Positions 11,133 through 58,504 of a DNA stretch of 64,000 nt are shown piece by piece (position 1 is the first letter of the stretch; each line of letters opens with the position of its first letter). A model generated the notes under the pieces. The model was not told the origin of the DNA. It ran no database searches and saw only the letters and a program-made list of their open reading frames with translations. The translations under genes and the position numbers were made by a program. Source of the DNA: Candidatus Heimdallarchaeum aukensis (GTDB lineage Archaea; Asgardarchaeota; Heimdallarchaeia; Heimdallarchaeales; Heimdallarchaeaceae). Location of the stretch: the NCBI GenBank assembly GCA_021513695.1, contig CP084166.1, positions 2,272,001 through 2,336,000 of the forward strand. The letters run 5' to 3'.

Positions 11133-11209
11133 GGCCTCGTGGCTTAGTTAGGTAAAGCAACGGACTCTTAATCCGTCGATCAGGGGTTCAAATCCCCTCG
11201 AGGTCACCA
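11133..11209 (+). tRNA. tRNA-Lys(CTT), 77 nt with encoded CCA
   Basis: Manual fold: acceptor GGCCTCG/CGAGGTC; D stem GCTT/AAGC; anticodon stem ACGGA/TCCGT with loop CTCTTAA (anticodon CTT at 11167-11169); T arm AGGGG-TTCAAAT-CCCCT; discriminator A + CCA. Confidence 0.9.
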
Positions 11210-11347: not shown

Positions 11348-11455
11348 GGGCTTGTAGCTCAGCTAGGTAGAGCAGCAGGCTTTTAAGCTTTCTGCGAGCC
11401 ATGCAAAAGCGCTGACACCTGTCGGCCATGGGTTCGAATCCCATCAAGCCCGCCA
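11348..11455 (+). tRNA. tRNA-Lys(TTT) with a ~31-nt intron in the anticodon loop (approx. 11386..11416). Encoded CCA.
   Basis: Acceptor GGGCTTG/CAAGCCC; D stem GCTC/GAGC; anticodon stem GCAGG...CCTGT interrupted after position 37; anticodon TTT at 11382-11384; T arm ATGGG-TTCGAAT-CCCAT; discriminator G + CCA. Confidence 0.85.
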
Positions 11456-11556: not shown

Positions 11557-12606
11557 ATGAAAACTACTCATGAAATTATATACTCCTCTTCTAGCTCTCT
11601 TCCTTCTATTCTTTCAAGTAGTGTTAATATTGTTGTCACTTCTCCCCCTTATCCAATGATTGAGATGTGGGATGAGCTTTTTTTTAATCTTAATCCTGAA
11701 ATCAAAACTTCTTTAACCTCTTATCCATCTTTAGCTTTTGAGCTTATGCATTTAGAGCTTGACAAAACTTGGAATGAAATTGATCGTCTTCTCAAACCTG
11801 GTTCGATTGTTTGCATAAACATTGGTGATGCAACGCGAAAGATTGATGGTAACTTTGCTCTTTATTCTAATAGTTCTCGAATAATCAGAAAATTTCTTGA
11901 ATTGGGCTATTTTTGTTTACCTTCTATTCTGTGGCGCAAACAAACTAACTCTCCCACCAAATTTATGGGGTCAGGCATGCTTCCTCCCGGTGCCTATGTA
12001 ACTTTAGAACATGAGCACATCTTGCTTTTCCGTAAAGGTTCTAAGCGAGAGTTTAATTCTTCCGAATCTAAATTGAATCGTCGTCGTAGCGCTTATTTTT
12101 GGGAAGAACGTAACCTTTGGTTTTCTGATATTTGGGAGTTTAAAGGCGTAAGTCAAAAACTAAATTCTGAAGTTTTGCGCTCTCGTAGTGCTGCATATCC
12201 TTTTGAGTTAGCTTTTCGCCTTATTAACATGTTTTCAGTTCAAGGTGATACAGTTCTTGATCCTTTTTTAGGTACGGGAACAACTACTCTAGCAGCTATT
12301 ACTTCATGTCGTAACAGTATTGGTGTAGAAATTGATAAAAATTTCAAGGCTATTATTCTCGAAAGCATAAGAAAGGTAAAAGATTTTGCAAATGGTTATA
12401 TTGATAATCGTTTGCAGGCACATCTGGCTTTTGTTAAACAAAAAGAAGAAACACATTCCTTTAAGCATCGTAACTCTATTTATGGTTTTCCTGTTATGAC
12501 TGCACAAGAAACTGATCTTTACTTTCCTAAAATTAAAAATGTTAAAATAAAAGATGAATCGCTTTTCGAAATTATTTATAAAAATAAAGAAAAGATTTAT
12601 TCGTAA
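11557..12606 (+). CDS. DNA methyltransferase, beta-class amino-methyltransferase (N4-cytosine or N6-adenine); no cognate restriction enzyme nearby
   Basis: Motif IV SPPY (VVTSPPYP) precedes motif I (DPFLGTGTT). Atypical codon usage (TCT/CTT/CGT-rich). Confidence 0.8.
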   Translation: MKTTHEIIYSSSSSLPSILSSSVNIVVTSPPYPMIEMWDELFFNLNPEIKTSLTSYPSLAFELMHLELDKTWNEIDRLLKPGSIVCINIGDATRKIDGNFALYSNSSRIIRKFLELGYFCLPSILWRKQTNSPTKFMGSGMLPPGAYVTLEHEHILLFRKGSKREFNSSESKLNRRRSAYFWEERNLWFSDIWEFKGVSQKLNSEVLRSRSAAYPFELAFRLINMFSVQGDTVLDPFLGTGTTTLAAITSCRNSIGVEIDKNFKAIILESIRKVKDFANGYIDNRLQAHLAFVKQKEETHSFKHRNSIYGFPVMTAQETDLYFPKIKNVKIKDESLFEIIYKNKEKIYS

Positions 12607-13376
12607 AAATCATCTCTTGTTCCAAACTCTCTTTCTATTGCAGCGATTAGTGTTTCTATATTATGCATAGTTGTCGCGCTTATTGGAAACAGTTCACCTG
12701 TGTTTCTAAATTGTTCTATAGTTTGTATTATGTTCAATCCTAGTTGTTTTGATAATGATATTGTTTGTCCTCTTTCTATTTCTATTCCTATTGTTTCTGG
12801 TTCTTCTATCCATCTTTCTAATCTTTCTTTGTGATCTTTTTTTATTAAATCTGCTTTTGAAATTACGGGTATTTGAGGGAGTTCTAATTGGAATTCTACT
12901 GATAGGCTTAGTAATAATATGCTTGCTAAACCTTCAGGTTTTAGTACTAATGATGGATCTATTAGGAACACCGATACAGGTTCTCTGTTTTCTTTTAACA
13001 TATTAGCGATAAACTTTCCACTGCTTCTATATGCAAATAATTCTATTTGTCCTGGTGTGTCTACGATTAAATATTGAGGGTCAACGTACTCCACTTCTGA
13101 CATCAAATCATGTATTTTAGTTGCTATTAGGTCCATACTGGCTATCATCGCCCCATTTGGACCTAGGTTGTATTCGTTTACTATTTCATTTATGTCTACT
13201 ATATCTCTTACATCTATCGCAGGAGCGTAAGGTATTGTTCTTACACCCGCATCTAAGTTAAGTATACCTACATCTAACTTCTTTTCCGAGAACCAATCAA
13301 ATAATGTCCTTGTCAGAAAAGTTTTTCCTGCTCCCGCAGTTCCAAGTAGGTAAATTATGTATTTTCTATCTGGCAC
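12597..13376 (-). CDS. GPN-loop GTPase (Npa3/XAB1 family)
   Basis: P-loop GTAGAGKTF, a signature GPN loop (EYNLGPNGAMIAS), and DTPGQIE. Confidence 0.85.
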   Translation of the reverse strand: MPDRKYIIYLLGTAGAGKTFLTRTLFDWFSEKKLDVGILNLDAGVRTIPYAPAIDVRDIVDINEIVNEYNLGPNGAMIASMDLIATKIHDLMSEVEYVDPQYLIVDTPGQIELFAYRSSGKFIANMLKENREPVSVFLIDPSLVLKPEGLASILLLSLSVEFQLELPQIPVISKADLIKKDHKERLERWIEEPETIGIEIERGQTISLSKQLGLNIIQTIEQFRNTGELFPISATTMHNIETLIAAIEREFGTRDDFYE

Positions 13377-25601: not shown

Positions 25602-26657
25602 CTATATAAGACCCCTTTCCATGAGAACTCTAAATTCTTCAAGAGATAAACTCTCACCATTCTTATATTTTGTCAGAATGGCTTCAGCTCTTGAATCTAG
25701 AATCTCATCTCTTATTTGTTTAGCTCTGATTTTCCTTTCTTTTCTTCGTGCTTTTAGCTCAATTCCTACTGTTTTTGAAAGGATTTTCATATCTTTTGTT
25801 ATAGAATCTAATTCTTTCTTTATTTCTTTAATTTTAGAGCTAATAGTTAATACTTCTGCGTGTAATGAATCTGCTTCTTCTTTTGCAATTTTAGCTTCTT
25901 TTGTGGCTTCAACCATTCTCTTCTGATGAACTTGTGATTGATTAGCTAGTGTAGTGACGCTTGTATGATATGTTTTAATTTCCATTTGCATTTGTCTGAG
26001 TTTATTTTGCATTTCTTTAATTTCACTCTTTAGTTCTCTGAAAATCTCTAGTTTTTCAAGTGCTCCACTTAATGCTTCTAACTGCTTAAGGGTTTCTCTC
26101 TCTTGATCTTTATCCAGAAAAGGAGTTGTTTCTAGTTTTCTTTCAATAGCTCTTATTTTTTCACCTACTCTTCTATCTCGAGGAGCTCCTACATCTTTTA
26201 TCTTTGAGGATAGCTCTAAAAGTCTATTTTTAATCTTCTCTGCTTCCTCTTTAAGGATATCTCTCATCTGTTTTCTTACTTGTACTTCTTCGTTGATTTT
26301 GTCTCTTTTCTCTTTTTCACTTCTTGCTTCCTGAAAAAGTTTCTTCACAAGTTCATTTTTCTCGTCTCGTAACTTTCTCTTCTCACTTCTTTCTTCTAAA
26401 AGTCTATGTAATTCATTAGAAAGCATACTTCGTCTTTGTCTAAGATAACTTAGTTTCTCTTTCTTTTCCTCAAGACTGAGTTCAGCAAAACGTGATTCTT
26501 CTTTCTCTTTTTGTTCTTCAGTATCTGTTTTTGGGGTAGCTTGTTCCTGTATTAATTCTTGTTTTTGTTCTTGTTCTGGATTAGCTTTGTTTTCCCCTGT
26601 TAATTCAGATTCACTCTCTTCCTCTTTGATATTAATATTTTCCTCGTTCGAGCTCAT
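25602..26657 (-). CDS. Archaeal coiled-coil protein (COG1340-like)
   Basis: 351 aa, E/K/R-rich heptad repeats throughout with an acidic N-terminus. Confidence 0.5.
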   Translation of the reverse strand: MSSNEENINIKEEESESELTGENKANPEQEQKQELIQEQATPKTDTEEQKEKEESRFAELSLEEKKEKLSYLRQRRSMLSNELHRLLEERSEKRKLRDEKNELVKKLFQEARSEKEKRDKINEEVQVRKQMRDILKEEAEKIKNRLLELSSKIKDVGAPRDRRVGEKIRAIERKLETTPFLDKDQERETLKQLEALSGALEKLEIFRELKSEIKEMQNKLRQMQMEIKTYHTSVTTLANQSQVHQKRMVEATKEAKIAKEEADSLHAEVLTISSKIKEIKKELDSITKDMKILSKTVGIELKARRKERKIRAKQIRDEILDSRAEAILTKYKNGESLSLEEFRVLMERGLI

Positions 26658-26749
26658 TTGTCAGCACACTAGAAGTTCTAAATTCTTTTTTAGCAAAGAG
26701 TTTTCCACTCTCTGCGACACAACCTTTGGATAAAGGAGATTATTATAAT

Positions 26750-26908
26750 TTATTTTTTGTCAGATCGTCTCATACGTAGATTCTTTGATCTGCATTTTCT
26801 ACATTTTTTTGCAGTTATCGGGTTAGTAGCTGAGCATTCTCTACAAACCTTTACATCCATCAGATGTGCTCGTGCTATTGCGCGATGTTCGGGATTAGTT
26901 ACTGGCAT
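26750..26908 (-). CDS. rpl40e: Ribosomal protein L40e
   Basis: 52-aa product MPVTNPEHRAIARAHLMDVKVCRECSATNPITAKKCRKCRSKNLRMRRSDKK, carrying the L40e C4 zinc motif and N..N..CRKC signature. Translated manually from the minus strand. Confidence 0.7.
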   Translation of the reverse strand: MPVTNPEHRAIARAHLMDVKVCRECSATNPITAKKCRKCRSKNLRMRRSDKK

Positions 26909-27257: not shown

Positions 27258-28523
27258 TTGAATTACTCAAAGCGGTTTAATAATTGTCGAATGGCGGTTG
27301 TAACAATGAATAAAACTATACAAGAAACGCTTAAATGGTTTGAAAATGAAATTTCTTCTGAACTTGCTAAACCTAGAAAAACTGCTTCTAAGCACCTTGA
27401 TGTTATAAAAGATAGGGTAAATGATATTAAAGATACTTCAGAAAGATTTGATTATAGTGATGTTAACGATCCTGATGTTTATCAAAACTATGCTACATCA
27501 ATTTATAAGAAAACTTTAGAAAAAATGAATGAAATTGAATTTCCAGAAGTAATTACATATAAGAATATTGACGATTTTTATAATCGGACTTTAAATATCC
27601 TTAATTCATATATTGAAATTCTAGCGAAGTACTTAACTTGGCTTAAACGTGATCGTTCTTATAAAACTAGAGTTAAAAATTTAGATAGGGCAATTACTAG
27701 ATTACAGCAAGAATTGTATAAACTTAACACAAAAACACTTGATGAATACTTAGAATATGAAAAATATGAGAGCGTGATTGATGATTTAAACTATCTGCAG
27801 GAATTAATTAATAGAAAAAAAGAAATTGAAAATGAAATTGAATCTCACAAAGATGATATTGAGCGATTAGATAAAATCATTGCAGAAAAATCTCGTGAAA
27901 AAGAAGAATTAGAGGGTCACCCGGGTTTTGCACAGCTAAAAGAAAATAAGGCGAAACTTTCACAGATTGAACTTACTATCTCTTCCAAAGTTAATGAAAT
28001 TAAGAAATTATGCTCAAAAATACTTAAAGCTGCTGATACAAGAAAAGTTGAACTTGACGATTATACACGAGAGCTGATTAAATCTATTATCAAAAATCCG
28101 CTAGAAGAGCTTGTTAAGGAAACTGATGGATATCCTGGCATCAAAAGTATGTTAAAAGAAGTTAGAAAGATTAGTGAATCACCAAATATTCAAATGAAAA
28201 AGGAGAAACTAGAAAAAGCTTTTAACAATATGGAGGAAATTCTAAACGATAGTTTACTTGACCTACAAAAAGAAGCTAAATTTTTACTAAAACAAACACA
28301 AGCTATTGAAGAGAAATTCGCTGAATTAGAAATTGATCGGAAAATATCCAAATTAAAACGTGAAATTGAAGACCTAAAAATAGATAAAGATAGAATAACA
28401 TTAGCTCAACGACGCGAATTAGCTGAAATAGAAAAAGAAGTAAACAATCTTTATGAAGATTTAATGAAACGTATAGAAGAATATACTGGAAAACACGTAA
28501 ATATTCTCTTAGAAGCCACTTGA
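27258..28523 (+). CDS. Long coiled-coil protein (hypothetical)
   Basis: 421-aa ORF dominated by K/E/L heptads. True start possibly MNKT at ~27306. Confidence 0.5.
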   Translation: MNYSKRFNNCRMAVVTMNKTIQETLKWFENEISSELAKPRKTASKHLDVIKDRVNDIKDTSERFDYSDVNDPDVYQNYATSIYKKTLEKMNEIEFPEVITYKNIDDFYNRTLNILNSYIEILAKYLTWLKRDRSYKTRVKNLDRAITRLQQELYKLNTKTLDEYLEYEKYESVIDDLNYLQELINRKKEIENEIESHKDDIERLDKIIAEKSREKEELEGHPGFAQLKENKAKLSQIELTISSKVNEIKKLCSKILKAADTRKVELDDYTRELIKSIIKNPLEELVKETDGYPGIKSMLKEVRKISESPNIQMKKEKLEKAFNNMEEILNDSLLDLQKEAKFLLKQTQAIEEKFAELEIDRKISKLKREIEDLKIDKDRITLAQRRELAEIEKEVNNLYEDLMKRIEEYTGKHVNILLEAT

Positions 28524-28694
28524 TTAATAGCTTTTTTTTTTATTTTTTATAAAGAAATGATATTGCAATTATCAACACAATTTTTAAATGATATGACTAA
28601 ATGATATAAGATAGTAAACATAGAACAACATTTAATATGTTTAACATCATTTAGCATATTAAGGATATGTAAATATATTTGAGGAGAATCAACT

Positions 28695-28994
28695 ATGATT
28701 TCACAAAAACAATTTGAAGAAACTCTGAAAAAGTTAGAAAGCCATCCCAGTGTAAGGGGCGTTATAATAACAAGTAATGATGGCTTACCTATCTCTAGTA
28801 CAAAAAATCTTTCAATAGAAATGCGAGAAAATGTTTCAGCATTAGTAGCTTCATTGGTTGGAAGAGCTAAAGCTGTGGTTAGCGAACTAGAAGAAGGAGA
28901 CTTGAATTTCTTTACTTTAGACACAACAAAGGGTGAGATTCTTGTCGCTCCAGAACAGGATTATGTGTTAATCGTTTTACGTAATAAGCAATAA
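28695..28994 (+). CDS. Roadblock/LC7 (MglB-like) domain protein
   Basis: 99 aa. SD GAGGAG upstream. [14 protein letters not shown]...ALVASLVG...[15 protein letters not shown] is the canonical roadblock pattern. Confidence 0.7.
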
Positions 28995-29065
28995 TAGAGT
29001 CATCATTAGTAGAAATTATATATAAAAGAAATAGGTTTCATTAAACAACGGAAGAGAGAGTTAGA

Positions 29066-29632
29066 ATGAGAAAAGATGCCTCAGGAAAGCAACACTTTAA
29101 GATAGTGTTTGTTGGACCTAGTTTAGCTGGAAAAACAACTTTACTTAGAAGACTCCATTCTGATGTCACAGGAATAAAAAAAGGTGGATTAAACAGTATA
29201 GAAGATCCTTCAGGAAGAACAATTTACTTTGATTTCTCACCTTTTATGGCGACATCAAATGTCATTTTGGATATTTACACAGTGGCTGGTCAAAAAAGGC
29301 ATAGACACCAAAGGGCGTTAGTTTTGAAGGGTGTTGACGGTCTCTTGTTTGTTGCAGATTCTTCAAGAGCGATGTTGGCCGATAATGTCGAATCAGCAGA
29401 AGAATTGAAAAAAGAACTTGGAGACAAATTAAACAATGAGATTCCACTAGTTATAGTTCTAAATAAACGTGATTTGCCAGATGCAATGGATAAACGAGAG
29501 TTAATCGATGCTTTAAATCTTGGAACAAATTTACCAGTTTACGAAACAATCGCCACAGAAGGTATAGGTGTTAAACGCGCTTTTCAGTCCCTAGCTAGAG
29601 AAGTTTTATTAAAACAAGTTTATAACATGTAG
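29066..29632 (+). CDS. Small Ras-superfamily GTPase (MglA/Arf/Rag-like), cognate of the upstream roadblock protein
   Basis: G1 GPSLAGKTT; switch I Thr; G3 DIYTVAGQ; G4 LNKRDL; G5 TIATEG. Confidence 0.8.
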   Translation: MRKDASGKQHFKIVFVGPSLAGKTTLLRRLHSDVTGIKKGGLNSIEDPSGRTIYFDFSPFMATSNVILDIYTVAGQKRHRHQRALVLKGVDGLLFVADSSRAMLADNVESAEELKKELGDKLNNEIPLVIVLNKRDLPDAMDKRELIDALNLGTNLPVYETIATEGIGVKRAFQSLAREVLLKQVYNM

Positions 29633-29653
29633 GAATAATCGTCACATAATAAG

Positions 29654-30994
29654 ATGAACTTGGAGAACAATTTTTTAACCTTTTTTTTAGCTTGTAAATA
29701 TCGTTTTAAAAATTTAAAAGGAGAAAAGCTTCAAAGATATCAAGAAAATCGGTTGAAGAAAATTGTTGATTATAGTGTAAAAAATTCTCCTTTTTTTAAG
29801 AGGTATTATTCTAATTACAACATTAATGATGTTTTCAATTTACCGACTGTAAATAAACATATAATGATGGAAAACCTATCAGAGTATAACACAGTTGGTT
29901 TTACAAAAGAAGAATTAATCAATTTCTGTTTGGAAGTGGAAAGGTCTAGGGACTTTTCTAAGAGATATAAAAAGTATAATGTTGCTATGTCTTCTGGAAC
30001 AAGCGGAAATAAAGGAATTGTAATAACTAGTCCAAAAGAAGAACGATATCTTAAAGCAGCTTTTTTTGCACGATTCCCTTTTCCTAGAACCTTGAAATTA
30101 AATATCGCTTTTATTTTGAGGGTTAGTACTCCTGCATTTAACATTAATAAATTTGGACAGAAACTCACCCATTTCAGTTTGCTTGATCCCCTAGAAGAAA
30201 TAGTAGAAAATCTAAACTCGCTTCAACCAAATATTCTCTCTGCTCCTCCTTCAATGCTCAATCTTCTTGCGGACGAGTACAGTGAGGGAAAGTTATGCAT
30301 TAAACCAAAAAAAATTATCTCTTATGCTGAAATCTTATATCCCGATATTAGAAAAAAAGTTGAAGAAACTTTTGGTATTAGAATTGATGAAATCTACCAA
30401 GCAAGTGAAGGCCCAATCGCTATGACTTGTAAACATGGATCATTACACATAAATGAAGACCTACTTGTTTTACAAACTCTAAACGAAGATGGTAGTCCAA
30501 CAGAAAAAGGAGAACTTTGCCACAAACTTATTGTATCTGATTTATATAAAACATCTCAACCCATAATCCGCTTTGAACTTAACGATATGATTAGAATAAG
30601 AGCTGAAAAATGTACTTGCGGTTCTGGATTTAGAATAATCGATGAAATTGTAGGGCGAACTGATGATTTATTAATTGGGGTTAATTCATCTACTGGTCAG
30701 GTTCATTACATTTTTCCTGATTATATACGCAGAGCTATTATCTCTTCTTCTGAGCAAGTAATCGAGTATCAAGCAATTCAAACCAGTAAAAACAGATTAG
30801 AAATTTCAATTCAATTATCAAAAGATAAAGACGAATTCCAAAACATCAAATCAGTTATCAAAAGAGCTGTAGAACAAGTTTTCAAAACTTACAATTGTGA
30901 GATTCCTGATGTTACAGTGAAAATTAGTCAATCTCAACTTCATCCAGTTTCTAAGAAGTTAATACGCATTCAACGAAAGTTTTCTATTGCTTGA
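29654..30994 (+). CDS. Adenylate-forming enzyme of the phenylacetate-CoA ligase (PaaK/F390 synthetase) family
   Basis: PaaK-type AMP-binding motif MSSGTSGNKG, YQASEGP (Y-x-S/T-E-G), and a C-terminal GRTDD. Confidence 0.7.
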   Translation: MNLENNFLTFFLACKYRFKNLKGEKLQRYQENRLKKIVDYSVKNSPFFKRYYSNYNINDVFNLPTVNKHIMMENLSEYNTVGFTKEELINFCLEVERSRDFSKRYKKYNVAMSSGTSGNKGIVITSPKEERYLKAAFFARFPFPRTLKLNIAFILRVSTPAFNINKFGQKLTHFSLLDPLEEIVENLNSLQPNILSAPPSMLNLLADEYSEGKLCIKPKKIISYAEILYPDIRKKVEETFGIRIDEIYQASEGPIAMTCKHGSLHINEDLLVLQTLNEDGSPTEKGELCHKLIVSDLYKTSQPIIRFELNDMIRIRAEKCTCGSGFRIIDEIVGRTDDLLIGVNSSTGQVHYIFPDYIRRAIISSSEQVIEYQAIQTSKNRLEISIQLSKDKDEFQNIKSVIKRAVEQVFKTYNCEIPDVTVKISQSQLHPVSKKLIRIQRKFSIA

Positions 30995-31046
30995 AGATTA
31001 ACTCTTCTCTTTAAACTTTATATACGAGAGCATTAATTTTCCTTTT

Positions 31047-32309
31047 ATGCGCCGTTATTTATCTATAGATTTTCTTCGAGGGTTAGGCATATTTTTTGTT
31101 GTGTTATTACATCAGCTTGTGTTTCATTACACTAATATTATTGAAGCAATTGAAAATCCCAACATTATTGTAATAATAGTAGGTTTTCTTTTAGAATTTG
31201 GAGGATTATTTGTTATAATCTCATCTATGGCGCATACGGTAACCAACTATGGAAGATTGAGAGACAATACTCAATCTCTCAGAAATATCTTAACTAGTTC
31301 AATTTTTTATGGATTCTTTTTCTTAATAATGAATTACATTTATTTCCTTATTTTTGCTCCTGGTCTATTAGACAGAGGTGTGGGAGAATTCAGAATGTCT
31401 ATTATTCCCGCTTTAATAAGGAAAGGAGTTTTTGTTCCTCCTGACATTGATCGTTATTTCCACGCAACTATTTTGGGAATCATTGGTTGGAGTATAATCT
31501 TTGTGAATATAGTTCTTTATTTCATATTTAGGAAAAATGGTTTACAAAAAGTTAAACGAAATATAATAATCATGTTTACCATAGGGACTCTATTTACAGT
31601 AGCAGGATTATCTCGAATATATCTTTATCCCGTATTTAACGGACTTGTTGACAATTCAAATTATTTTTCTGCGATTTTCCTTGGATTTTTAGTAAATAAT
31701 TATTATCCAATTTTTCCTTATCTTGGGTTCGCTTTCTATGGTTCTATGATAGGGTTAGCAATAGTGTATGAAGAATATAAAAAATATTACTGGAAGTTCT
31801 TTTTTGTTCTTGGTTTTTTCTGGTTAATATTAGGTGTTGCTGGTTATGTCTCTTTTGAAGATACAATGCTTGAGCGAGCTGTTGATATGCATGCTGTTTC
31901 TTTTGAAGCACTAATGTTAGGTATTTTTATTCTGTTATTTCAACTATTCTTTAAACTCATTGATCAAAATGGAGATGATGTTAGCCCAAAAAAAGAAAAA
32001 ACTACTCGTTTCTTTAGAAGATTTGGTGTTGTTTCATTTACAATTTTTATGTTTGAAACTACCTTCTCTGAACTGATCGGAAAAGTATTCGATTTAGTTT
32101 GGGCTGGCTGGAACACAGAAATGTGGTCATGTTTTATATTTTCATTTACAAATCTGATTCTTTGGACAATTATTATTGTTTTATGGGAAAAAACGGGATT
32201 TAAATATGGGTTAGAATGGATGACTGGAAAGATCCTCTATTTACTAGTAAAACGCCCTTCTACAAAAATCTATTTGAAGCAAATTCTATATTTAGAGGAA
32301 ACAAAATAA
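31047..32309 (+). CDS. Polytopic membrane protein, acyltransferase-3/DUF1624 (HGSNAT-like) family candidate
   Basis: N-terminal R...SIDFLRGLGIFFVVLLH signature of the acyltransferase_3/DUF1624 family. ~10 predicted TM helices. Confidence 0.45.
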   Translation: MRRYLSIDFLRGLGIFFVVLLHQLVFHYTNIIEAIENPNIIVIIVGFLLEFGGLFVIISSMAHTVTNYGRLRDNTQSLRNILTSSIFYGFFFLIMNYIYFLIFAPGLLDRGVGEFRMSIIPALIRKGVFVPPDIDRYFHATILGIIGWSIIFVNIVLYFIFRKNGLQKVKRNIIIMFTIGTLFTVAGLSRIYLYPVFNGLVDNSNYFSAIFLGFLVNNYYPIFPYLGFAFYGSMIGLAIVYEEYKKYYWKFFFVLGFFWLILGVAGYVSFEDTMLERAVDMHAVSFEALMLGIFILLFQLFFKLIDQNGDDVSPKKEKTTRFFRRFGVVSFTIFMFETTFSELIGKVFDLVWAGWNTEMWSCFIFSFTNLILWTIIIVLWEKTGFKYGLEWMTGKILYLLVKRPSTKIYLKQILYLEETK

Positions 32310-32356: not shown

Positions 32357-32833
32357 ATGAGAACTTTTTTTAGATTGAGAATGAGTTTAAAAACAAGTTT
32401 CTACTGCTATGGACATAAAAATGTTTTATGTAAGCATTTAACTACACTTGAATTTACTACAGATGACTTTCTTACATTAAGAGGTGACTGTATAATAGGA
32501 ATAAGATCCAACATGAGTTTGTTTTCACTACCAGAAAAAATGAAACAATTTATCAGAAATGATAATACAAAAATAATTGTCAAGATGGAAGTTGACGATT
32601 TAGTTGAAGAAGTAATAGGCTATGGAAATTCAAAGCTGGAATTATCAGACACACATGCAATGATTATTAGAAAAAGCTCTTACACATGTTCAAGGACTTT
32701 AATGATAGGTGCAAATAAGGCTGCAATTGATATTTCAAGAGAGATTGTTCAAAAAATGAAAAACCCTGATTCTAAAATGAGGGTCACAATTCAAGTGTTT
32801 CCTGCAGATAATAGAAGATCAATACACGCATGA
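32357..32833 (+). CDS. Hypothetical protein (possible DUF371-like)
   Basis: 158-aa ORF. 3' end overlaps the convergent trm5 by ~43 nt. Confidence 0.35.
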   Translation: MRTFFRLRMSLKTSFYCYGHKNVLCKHLTTLEFTTDDFLTLRGDCIIGIRSNMSLFSLPEKMKQFIRNDNTKIIVKMEVDDLVEEVIGYGNSKLELSDTHAMIIRKSSYTCSRTLMIGANKAAIDISREIVQKMKNPDSKMRVTIQVFPADNRRSIHA

Positions 32834-42537: not shown

Positions 42538-42880
42538 AGATGCTGAGCTGATAGCAACAGCTAAAGTGGGAAGCTAGGGCTCTCCTGTAACCGGAAACGC
42601 TCTATATGCCGGGCTGAAAACTGCTGCTGAGGGCTCGTCGAGGAAGATACGCTCTGTCTGGAAAGCGTCGAAGCATCGCCCCATGAGATTGTGCACACCC
42701 GAGGCGCCTTTGGAGGAAGGTGTTAGAAGGGTTGAGATCAAAAAGGGTCAGGCACGGAAGTGAGCAGCCCTAAGATCGATGCATGATGCCCATGGCAAGC
42801 GGTGTGGAGCTTAAGGGCAGTAAAACGGCTTCCAAAACGGGTTCGAACAGCAGGCTGCTAAGATTAGTTCAGCAGTCTTG
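42538..42880 (+). ncRNA. ffs: Signal recognition particle RNA (7S/SRP RNA). Boundaries approximate.
   Basis: A GC-rich (~55%) island in AT-rich DNA. Domain IV/helix 8 motif GGUCAGGcaCGGAAGugAGCAGCC. Alu-domain-like CCUGUAACCGGAAAC. Ends in an oligo-T tract at 42881-42889. Confidence 0.65.
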
Positions 42881-54057: not shown

Positions 54058-54132
54058 GGGGTAGTAGTCTAGTGGTATGACAACGCCTTCACGCGGCGTA
54101 GGTCGCAGGTTCAATTCCTGCCTACCCCACCA
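54058..54132 (+). tRNA. tRNA-Val(CAC), CCA encoded
   Basis: Acceptor GGGGTAG/CTACCCC; anticodon stem ACGCC/GGCGT with loop TTCACGC (anticodon CAC 54090-54092); T arm GCAGG-TTCAATT-CCTGC; discriminator A. Confidence 0.9.
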
Positions 54133-57847: not shown

Positions 57848-58504
57848 CTATCTAATGTATATCTCTCTAAATTTCAAAACCTTTTCTTCACTTTGGATAG
57901 CTAATCTTGCAGCATGAGAAAAAAGTTTTTCAACATTTTCAGATGATAATGCAGATGTTTCTATATAATCAAAATTATTTTCTTTTGCATATTCTTCTGC
58001 TTTTTCTCTGTCTACAGCTCTTGCATTTTTTAGATCACTCTTATTTCCACATAAAATAATTGGAATTTCTGAACATTTTTTCTTTATTTCACTAACCCAA
58101 AAGGATACATCATCAAATGTTGACGTTTTAGTAATATCATAGACTACGATAGCAACTTTAGCTCCTAGAAAATATTTTTGTCTAACAAATCCAAAAATTT
58201 CTTGAGCTCCTGTATCCCATAAACTAATTCTAACATTAACATCATCGGTGAGTATATTTTTAGACAAATTTTCATTTAATTCGTCCTTTGTTAAGGAAAG
58301 ACTTTTCGTTAACCAACTCACACCCATTGTTGGGATATAAGAATATGAGAAAGTGTTCATAGCATATCTTCTTGCCAATGATGTTTTTCCTACAAAAGCT
58401 GAACCAATTGTTATAATTTTATACAAATGTCGTTCTATCATTTTTATCTCCAAAATATTTCTATTAGTTTTCTTTCTATGTTGATACTGCTTAAACGCCT
58501 CCAA
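57848..58504 (-). CDS. Rab/Ras-like small GTPase (eukaryote-like)
   Basis: G1 GSAFVGKTS; switch I YIPTMGV; G3 LWDTGAQE; G4 GNKSDL; G5 ETSAL. Confidence 0.8.
   Translation of the reverse strand: MEAFKQYQHRKKTNRNILEIKMIERHLYKIITIGSAFVGKTSLARRYAMNTFSYSYIPTMGVSWLTKSLSLTKDELNENLSKNILTDDVNVRISLWDTGAQEIFGFVRQKYFLGAKVAIVVYDITKTSTFDDVSFWVSEIKKKCSEIPIILCGNKSDLKNARAVDREKAEEYAKENNFDYIETSALSSENVEKLFSHAARLAIQSEEKVLKFREIYIR

Follow-up and report, generated by a model that had tools for sequence, protein, structure and literature searches.

Coupling of the small GTPase MglA to the roadblock protein MglB has been described in prokaryotes (PMC4316618), and the MglA proteins of Group 1, described as bacterial, are recognized by an arginine next to the G2 threonine and by a threonine that replaces the aspartate of the DxxGQ motif (PMC4316618, PMC3000849). 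The cultured Lokiarchaeon MK-D1 has a small group of MglA-like GTPases according to Tran et al., its small GTPase genes generally do not lie in operons with roadblock genes, and a truncated 'RBLC7' type of roadblock protein was described by the same authors (PMC10933270). In the Asgard core, Liu et al. counted three families of roadblock/longin proteins and two of small GTPases, and the GTPase operon that they described differs from the cluster seen here (bioRxiv 10.1101/2020.10.19.343400), and one Thorarchaeota MglA-MglB pair was modelled in a 2026 paper (PMC13408092). Here, we analyse a stretch of 64,000 nucleotides (nt) from the Asgard archaeon Candidatus Heimdallarchaeum aukensis (contig CP084166.1, positions 2,272,001 to 2,336,000 of the forward strand), hereafter the window, in which a roadblock gene and an MglA-type GTPase gene stand between the gene of a helical-rod protein, CC, and the genes of an adenylate-forming ligase and a membrane acyltransferase. 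That archaeal roadblock genes adjoin GTPases was reportedly remarked on by Koonin and Aravind in 2000, as cited in PMC10933270; a search for literature on a widely shared Asgard roadblock-MglA cluster, on the helical family or on the pairing of the two acylation genes found none, with most subscription journals outside the search. The description that fits the locus best is a variant MglA-roadblock switch that has only an LC7-type roadblock protein and a new helical partner and lies beside an independent acylation pair. We favour, with reasonable though not high confidence, the view that two units of separate function lie in the interval and adjoin each other only in the genus Ca. Heimdallarchaeum.

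An earlier account made from the letters alone, the sequence-only reading, had listed five co-oriented open reading frames (ORFs), and all five are present on the + strand in the six-frame ORF list, the first at 27258/27291-28523, with successive gaps of 171, 71, 21 and 52 nt. The features that the argument needs are the following, with lengths in amino acids (aa) and the basis of each call in brackets:

27291-28523, + strand: CC gene, 410-aa helical-rod protein (ORF and gene call)
28532-28548, + strand: T10-A-T6 run, 9 nt past the CC stop codon (read from the sequence)
28695-28994, + strand: Robl1, 99-aa roadblock protein assigned to the short RBLC7/dynein-light-chain type (Pfam Robl_LC7)
29066-29632, + strand: small GTPase assigned to the MglA family, 188 aa (PDB sequence matches and motifs)
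29654-30994, + strand: F390-synthetase-related adenylate-forming enzyme of the PaaK superfamily, 446 aa (TIGR02304)
31047-32309, + strand: predicted AT3/HGSNAT (TmAT) transmembrane acyltransferase, 420 aa (AlphaFold2 (AF2) fold and motifs of the first transmembrane helix (TMH1))
32357-32833, + strand: DUF371 protein (Pfam DUF371, 2.1e-46), a co-oriented neighbour outside both modules

The G+C content is about 31% throughout and shows no compositional break at the interval. The GTPase gene is 99% identical to that of Ca. Heimdallarchaeum endolithica PR6 (CP084167.1), and several metagenome contigs carry the same proteins as the interval.

The best Pfam matches of the GTPase, Arf (4.8e-18) and Ras, bear out its earlier placement in the Ras superfamily. 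Among PDB chains, MglA of Thermus thermophilus and Myxococcus xanthus (3t12/3t1q, 6hjh and 6izw) was matched at 3.5e-31 to 4.7e-31 and the best Arf at 7.5e-12; identity to M. xanthus MglA is 39%. The G1 motif GPSLAGKT (residues 17-24) fits the P-loop GxxxxGK[ST], and the G4 motif NKRD (133-136) fits the guanine-specificity motif NKxD. When the protein was aligned with 13 Asgard orthologues and M. xanthus MglA, the spacing between G1 and G2 was free of gaps, and R51-T52 in G2, an arginine finger beside the G2 threonine, was invariant across the 15 sequences. The G3 motif had been given as DxxGQ; the sequence in fact reads T72-V-A-G-Q76, that is TxxGQ, with TTAGQ in some orthologues. Relative to the TVPGQ of Group 1, the threonine, glycine and glutamine are retained and proline is changed to alanine; the window protein shares with MglA of T. 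thermophilus and M. xanthus the R-T of G2 and a T-V-x-G-Q in G3. Judging from the gap between E-values in the PDB search and from these motifs, the GTPase belongs to the MglA family. Judged by its matches among PDB chains, it lies nearer to MglA than to other Ras-superfamily groups. Orthologues 55-88% identical to it occur in genomes labelled Heimdall-, Kari-, Hod-, Jord-, Frey-, Baldr-, Odin-, Wukong-, Thor- and Promethearchaeota.

A likeness to Rag GTPases and Ragulator, offered earlier as the alternative to MglA, is confined to the general logic of a roadblock dimer that serves as a platform for a small GTPase. The Gtr1_RagA match reaches 19.7 bits against a Pfam cutoff of 22 and the LAMTOR5 match 26 bits against 27; the 188-aa GTPase consists of a G domain only, without the C-terminal roadblock domain, and its similarity to MglA is far stronger, by about 20 orders of magnitude. 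We rejected this assignment.

The window also encodes a second small GTPase, of the Ras/Rab type (57848-58504, - strand; PF00071, 1.6e-45), whose gene is followed by a 282-aa ORF without a Pfam match. A GPN-loop GTPase gene (12597-13376, - strand; PF03029, 7.5e-56) lies 16 kb from the MglA-type gene, and several other Asgard loci have its orthologue at 2-5 kb from the MglA cluster.

Robl1, encoded 71 nt upstream of the GTPase, matches Pfam Robl_LC7 at 1.3e-19, as the earlier roadblock/LC7 call had anticipated. Its best PDB match is a 94-aa Asgard Robl_LC7 chain, 7f8f (1.6e-25), probably the Odin-RBLC7 of Tran et al. 2024. Chains of the eukaryotic dynein light chain roadblock (DYNLRB) followed at 1e-15 to 1e-17, and no bacterial MglB chain was found in the PDB search at E≤1. 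The MglB chains in the PDB are 136-192 aa long and have a C-terminal extension, whereas Robl1 has 99 aa; from this length alone, we deduce that it is missing the C-terminal helix. In family, short length and strong sequence similarity, Robl1 is thus like Asgard RBLC7 and eukaryotic DYNLRB/LC7, and by these comparisons it is of the short RBLC7/dynein-LC7 type, not MglB-like. It differs from the LC7 of dynein in that its gene is tightly linked to that of an MglA-type GTPase; to our knowledge, dynein is absent from archaea.

The comparison with the MglA-MglB switch therefore has two sides. As in that switch, the GTPase gene lies beside a gene of roadblock fold, and the sequence-only reading was right to see MglA-type logic in an archaeon, inasmuch as the GTPase is of that type, the pair is conserved and the host is an Asgard archaeon. 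It departs from that switch in three respects: the partner is a 99-aa LC7-type protein whose similarity to MglB is undetectable, G3 reads TVAGQ where Group 1 MglA has TVPGQ, and the MglB-like paralogue of other Asgards is lacking from the window. The 64-kb window, the part of the genome that was searched, contains no roadblock gene other than Robl1 and no prenyltransferase gene.

To place the locus among its relatives, we used a census of 80 loci with an orthologue of the GTPase, drawn from Asgard assemblies at one genome per species, whose ORFs were searched with the window proteins and with hidden Markov models (HMMs). Twenty-five of these loci are from Heimdallarchaeaceae (GTPases 84-99% identical) and 55 from outside that family; 79 come from genomes other than that of the window. 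A roadblock gene lies on the same strand within 1.6 kb upstream of the GTPase in 69 loci, and 74 loci have a roadblock gene at 3.5 kb or less from the GTPase. The roadblock-GTPase pairing is strongly conserved across Asgard archaea.

Outside Heimdallarchaeia, the usual order is Robl1, Robl2, GTPase, Robl3 and a cis-prenyltransferase, the first being the orthologue of the window roadblock. Robl2 (155 aa), whose best PDB match is the MglB 1j3w (1.7e-5), separates Robl1 from the GTPase in 37 loci, and Robl3 (about 123 aa) matches 7f8m at 7.9e-27. In the 25 Heimdallarchaeaceae loci, only Robl1 is found upstream of the GTPase. Of the 55 loci outside Heimdallarchaeaceae, 36 have the cis-prenyltransferase (UppS family; PF01255, 1e-79) near the GTPase (e.g. 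L054:9048-9818 and L048:11172-12000), and in 29 of those 36 it shares the strand of the GTPase. It directly follows Robl3 in Odin, Baldr, Thor and Prometheo types, with about 1 kb from the start of the GTPase to its own start, and is about 3-3.6 kb from the GTPase in Jord and Frey types.

The sequence-only reading had placed a 421-aa coiled-coil protein ahead of the pair. A helical protein is indeed encoded there, and it belongs to a specific family; gene callers and the alignment of homologues give it 410 aa from ATG 27291, not 421 aa from TTG 27258. CC has no match in Pfam or NCBIfam. An exhaustive HMMER search among 1.84e9 proteins returned 81 cluster representatives at E≤1e-3, which, fragments apart, are about 400-420 aa long and align over nearly their full length with 16-52% identity and a few conserved positions (P85, K243 and K303). 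Pfam scans of 40 family members gave scattered coiled-coil noise only and nothing consistent. The AF2 model of CC has a mean predicted local distance difference test score (pLDDT) of 95.1 and consists entirely of helices apart from short terminal strands, and a Foldseek comparison with the PDB gave no specific match (template modelling (TM) scores of 0.25 or less).

The CC family HMM has matches in 17 of the 80 loci, at distances of 0.6-7 kb from the GTPase; all 17 are of the Heimdall type without Robl2. With 37 loci that have Robl2 without CC, 17 that have CC without Robl2 and none that has both, the two genes were never seen together (Fisher p=4e-6, a value that ignores shared ancestry). In a second Heimdall lineage, with GTPases 59-63% identical to that of the window, nine loci have CC; in six of these it abuts the pair, before or after it and in either orientation. 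Within Heimdallarchaeaceae, the window and L030 have CC next to the pair, and in six other loci it lies 5-7 kb off, beside Trm5 and DUF371; such relatives show Trm5 (+), DUF371 (-) and CC (+) in this order, 3.5-7 kb downstream of the GTPase. Altogether, CC stands near the pair in at least five arrangements: ahead of roadblock and GTPase genes in line (window and L064), directly after the GTPase (L045, L046 and L050), divergent (L030 and L058), convergent (L041) or about 2-7 kb away (L012, L013, L015, L019, L024, L029 and L096). In L096, the CC homologue is a divergent one (24% identity) about 2 kb from the pair. On the short metagenome contigs L094 and L095 (2 kb), the sole yield of a search made from the CC side and with their ends not read, CC lies directly upstream of Robl1. 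Of all neighbours of the pair, CC has the strongest case for real linkage; these data suggest that it is likely a lineage-specific partner of the switch, most likely acting as an effector or scaffold.

Divergent from the CC gene in the window are a DUF7121 coiled-coil gene (25602-26657, - strand) and a ribosomal L40e gene (about 26749-26907, - strand). A DUF7121 homologue is also found within about 2 kb of the CC gene in L012, L024 and L029, and the CC family HMM has no match to DUF7121 ORFs at E≤1e-3.

Archaeal transcription terminates at oligo-T tracts. The T10-A-T6 run just past the CC stop codon is, by its sequence and position, a likely terminator of this kind, parting CC from the roadblock-GTPase transcript, so that the CC transcript probably ends there. 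No T-run is present in the 71-nt gap before the GTPase or in the 21-nt gap before the ligase, and roadblock, GTPase and ligase may therefore share one transcript in this genome; the short distance and the missing T-run make co-transcription of ligase and GTPase probable. A TATA-like element can be read upstream of the membrane-protein gene. A scan for sigma-70 promoters and hairpin terminators, which does not model archaeal signals, gave 28 promoter-like sites against 28.9 expected and 0 terminators, and Rfam detected no RNA family in or near the interval.

From the common strand, the sequence-only reading had suggested that the genes could form one GTPase-regulated membrane-modification or polarity module. 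The comparison of Asgard neighbourhoods, which it had itself named as a check, told against it, with the linkage of the pair to the acylation genes largely absent elsewhere. Near the GTPase, the membrane protein is confined to the locus of the window's own genome, and the 79 loci of other genomes all lack it. At five of the 21 informative Heimdallarchaeaceae loci (L009, L015, L021, L024 and L031), the ligase comes after the GTPase; it does so at 0 of the 55 beyond this family. The five ligase-bearing loci are scattered on a neighbour-joining tree of Robl-GTPase DNA, and several of the remaining Heimdallarchaeaceae loci have, in the ligase slot, a GNAT acetyltransferase gene on the other strand. 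The whole five-gene order was otherwise found only in a near-identical sister species (88-90% amino-acid identity), which came to light outside the census. The five-gene module is not conserved.

The ligase was correctly recognized as a PaaK-superfamily adenylating enzyme. It passes the TIGR02304 model, 'F390 synthetase-related', at 6.1e-96 (322 bits against a cutoff of 251.9, residues 8-443 of 446), and its best PDB matches are PaaK 4r1l (6.3e-16) and 9s3l (1.5e-13). Although it shares the adenylate-forming superfamily with PaaK and coenzyme F390 synthetase, it falls far below the equivalog cutoffs, with 50.7 and 69.2 bits for PaaK (cutoffs of 646 and 700) and 37.1 bits for F390 synthetase (cutoff of 458.7), and TIGR02304 has no known substrate. 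Four stretches are taken by us to be ANL core motifs: SSGTSGNKG (113-121), YQASEG (248-253), GRTDD (334-338) and SKKLIR (433-438). The literature search returned nothing on TIGR02304, again with most subscription journals beyond its reach. The family is large, with 668 homologues at E≤1e-10. Three sampled orthologues from other Asgard and Bathyarchaeia genomes (L006, L007 and L008) stand in unrelated contexts, after a CoA-biosynthesis cluster, after an SBP_bac_5 solute-binding-protein gene and after an MZB-domain gene, and no GTPase or Robl_LC7 gene was called within 6 kb of them.

In L006 (L006:56-7344, Heimdallarchaeota RDOD01000002.1), the ligase orthologue comes directly after a co-oriented six-gene cluster with Pfam matches to GHMP_kinases_N, PPS_PS, Pantoate_transf, ApbA, Pyridoxal_deC and Flavoprotein/DFP, which suggest CoA biosynthesis, and it is followed by a DAGK_cat kinase gene. 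This context hints at a CoA-related substrate for the ligase.

For the polytopic membrane protein, an acyltransferase-like identity had been proposed, with an HMM assignment as a check. Its own Pfam score (17.9 bits) stays under the cutoff of 31, and the HMM matches come by way of its homologues: of 23, 10 match Acyl_transf_3 and 9 match HGSNAT_cat at E≤0.01. There are 46 detectable homologues, and the close family is tiny, with about 15 proteins of 400-470 aa. Across the 23 homologues, D8, R11, G12 and H22 are invariant, which gives a DxxR motif (D8-F-L-R11) and an R-x10-H motif (R11...H22) in TMH1; the TMH1 motifs DxxR and R/K-x10-H, the latter with the catalytic histidine, define AT3/TmAT enzymes (PMC12423673, PMC7448272). 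The AF2 model (pLDDT 86, predicted TM score 0.87) has human HGSNAT as its sole real fold match in the PDB (probability 1.00, TM 0.50-0.53), the next match being at E 0.49 and TM 0.19. From predicted fold and motifs, the protein is thus assigned to the AT3/HGSNAT(DUF1624) superfamily (TmAT) of transmembrane acyltransferases, as had been supposed. It has the TMH1 motifs of this superfamily, to which OafA/OafB and human HGSNAT belong, and differs from these in having no fused SGNH or luminal domain and in being paired with an adenylate-forming ligase.

That pairing recurs elsewhere. Among five AT3-like homologues from outside the genus, three are followed at once by a TIGR02304-type gene (L090:5001-7573, L091:644-3231 and L093:4001-5610); the overlap of the two genes amounts to four bases in L090 and in L091 and to a single base in L093. 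The gene order is opposite to that of the window, and the ligases are 33-40% identical to the window ligase over the aligned parts. These contigs are apparently bacterial, judged by their neighbours and closest named homologues, and in their 5.6-10 kb no small-GTPase or roadblock gene was called. Given that the pair is found in distant organisms, in reversed order and without a called GTPase gene, it appears that ligase and AT3 enzyme work together independently of the GTPase.

The two units that we favour would work as follows. The first (27291-29632) would be a small-GTPase switch whose MglA-type GTPase carries its own catalytic glutamine (Q76) and arginine finger (R51). By analogy with MglB and MglA, a Robl1 dimer would probably bind the GTP form and tune hydrolysis or the nucleotide state, and CC would accompany the pair in Heimdallarchaeia in place of the MglB-like roadblock kept by other Asgards. 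The second (29654-32309) would be an acylation pair: to judge from the families, the ligase may activate a carboxylic acid as acyl-AMP and probably acyl-CoA, and the AT3/HGSNAT-fold enzyme may transfer the acyl group through the membrane onto an acceptor outside the cytoplasm, probably a glycan. As part of this reading, and with the same measured confidence, the neighbourhood of GTPase and ligase would be an accident of position without a conserved regulatory link.

Several observations weigh against such a separation or against particular parts of it. Adjacency of GTPase and ligase in four other Heimdallarchaeaceae genomes, with ligases only about 57% identical, is more than an accident of a single species. 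With the cis-prenyltransferase at 36 of 55 loci, the switch may have a recurrent link to envelope or glycan-lipid enzymes. Robl1, without the C-terminal region of MglB, may not be a GTPase-activating protein. Two of the five AT3-like homologues outside the genus (L089 and L092) have no ligase beside them. Regarding CC, its homologue in L097 lies on a 2.4-kb contig that contains no GTPase, and in most Heimdallarchaeaceae, CC accompanies Trm5 and DUF371 at a distance of 5-7 kb from the GTPase, a pattern that synteny alone could explain. In favour of one operon of five genes, in which the switch would control a membrane-modification or polarity machine of ligase and acyltransferase with CC as scaffold, are the common strand and short gaps, among them the 21 nt without a T-run between GTPase and ligase, the identical order in the sister species, the adjacency at five of 21 informative loci and the fact that it is the same GTPase cluster that abuts the envelope-related prenyltransferase in other Asgards. 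We nevertheless hold a single operon to be unlikely, since the membrane protein is missing from all 79 loci of other genomes and the ligase from all 55 outside the family, with a patchy presence inside it; the strong oligo-T tract parts CC from the other genes; and both enzymes are found apart from the switch, the ligase orthologues of L006, L007 and L008 having no called GTPase or roadblock gene nearby and the ligase-AT3 pair occurring on unrelated contigs without a GTPase. In L089, moreover, a 43%-identical AT3 homologue sits on a different contig of the assembly that holds L030, whose GTPase has no ligase.

More weight, though still well short of an even chance, is due to the possibility that only the roadblock-GTPase pair is a functional unit and that CC is an unrelated gene kept nearby by synteny with Trm5, DUF371 and DUF7121. 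The six distant Heimdallarchaeaceae loci, with CC always beside DUF371 and Trm5, the likely terminator between CC and the pair, the solitary homologue in L097 and the absence of a recognizable GTPase-binding domain in CC are all compatible with this. It accounts poorly for the second Heimdall lineage, where CC abuts the pair in four orientations (L041, L045, L046, L050, L058 and L064): such varied orientations point to selection for linkage and not to inherited order. Nor does it predict that CC should lie directly upstream of the roadblock gene in L094 and L095, that the 24%-identical homologue should again be about 2 kb from a pair or that CC and the MglB-like Robl2 should never share a locus; two given genes in a genome of 3.3 Mb have a chance of about 0.5% of lying 8 kb or less apart. 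Less probable, and in our view unlikely, is that Robl1 is an LC7-like adaptor and no regulator, with the GTPase cycling unaided or under an unlinked MglB-like protein. The GTPase does carry its own arginine finger and glutamine, Robl1 resembles eukaryotic LC7 and the Asgard RBLC7 chain rather than MglB and is far shorter than the 136-192-aa MglB chains, the better MglB candidate Robl2 is nearer to the GTPase in other Asgards, and the 64-kb window, to which the search of this genome was confined, has no second roadblock gene. Yet Robl1 stays upstream of the GTPase with or without Robl2 across at least family-level divergence, and RBLC7 dimers have the same platform face as MglB and LAMTOR proteins (PMC10933270).

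In Thor- and Prometheo-type loci, the cluster has a further neighbour. In 11 of them (L069, L070, L073, L075, L076, L078, L081, L082, L084, L085 and L087; plus L088, cut by the contig end), a Sec23/24-like gene, roadblock genes and the GTPase orthologue follow one another on one strand, with the Sec23/24-like protein of 540-575 aa encoded upstream of the Robl1-Robl2-MglA-Robl3-prenyltransferase cluster (e.g. L076:5096-6778). All 10 members tested match Sec23_trunk (best 9.7e-13) and Sec23_BS (best 5.8e-10), seven of the 10 also match the Sec23/24 zinc finger, and a profile matches Sec24A in the PDB at 1.8e-8. The arrangement recalls the Sec23/24-Sar1 pairing of COPII, from which it differs in that the GTPase is of the MglA type and not Sar1/Arf; no Sec23/24-like gene is found in the window. 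The one published interaction test that we found for an Asgard Sec23-like protein was made with an Arf-like GTPase and not with this MglA-type one (PMC11914678).

A wider reading joins these loci to that of the window. In Heimdallarchaeia, the window pair may be what is left of a membrane-associated GTPase cluster widely shared among Asgards, which may have consisted of Robl1, the MglB-like Robl2, the MglA-type GTPase, Robl3 and the cis-prenyltransferase, with the Sec23/24-like protein ahead of it in Thor/Loki types. The MglA-type GTPase, rather than an Arf-like one, may be the native switch of an archaeal proto-COPII protein; the eukaryotic dynein light chain may descend from its LC7-like roadblock partner; and the Heimdallarchaeial family of 410-aa helical rods may have replaced the MglB-like regulator as partner of the switch. 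Taken whole, we consider this chain of proposals speculative and rather improbable.

Beyond the acylation genes, the convergent DUF371 (+) and Trm5/TYW2 (-) ORFs share 43 nt at their 3' ends (32791-32833), and past Trm5/TYW2 a molybdenum-cofactor gene set (MoaC, MoaA, MOSC, MoeA and MogA-like) extends from 34024 onward. The window also contains an archaeal signal recognition particle RNA (42554-42861, + strand) and three tRNAs (11133-11206, 11348-11452 and 54058-54129, + strand), of which the 105-nt match at 11348-11452 probably contains an intron.

Asgard small GTPases and roadblock proteins are counted among the 'eukaryotic signature' genes, and a GTPase can seldom be assigned to its regulator. 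One orthologous MglA-type GTPase flanked by roadblock genes in most of 80 loci is a clear exception to the pattern of MK-D1, and cognate pairs can thus be named and tested. Annotation should treat the ligase and the membrane protein as a pair for acyl activation and transmembrane acyl transfer and not as effectors of the GTPase. The finding would gain interest if the Sec23/24-like link of the related loci proved functional. The lineage usually placed closest to eukaryotes has, at this locus, only the dynein-LC7-like roadblock protein and appears to have acquired a new helical partner.

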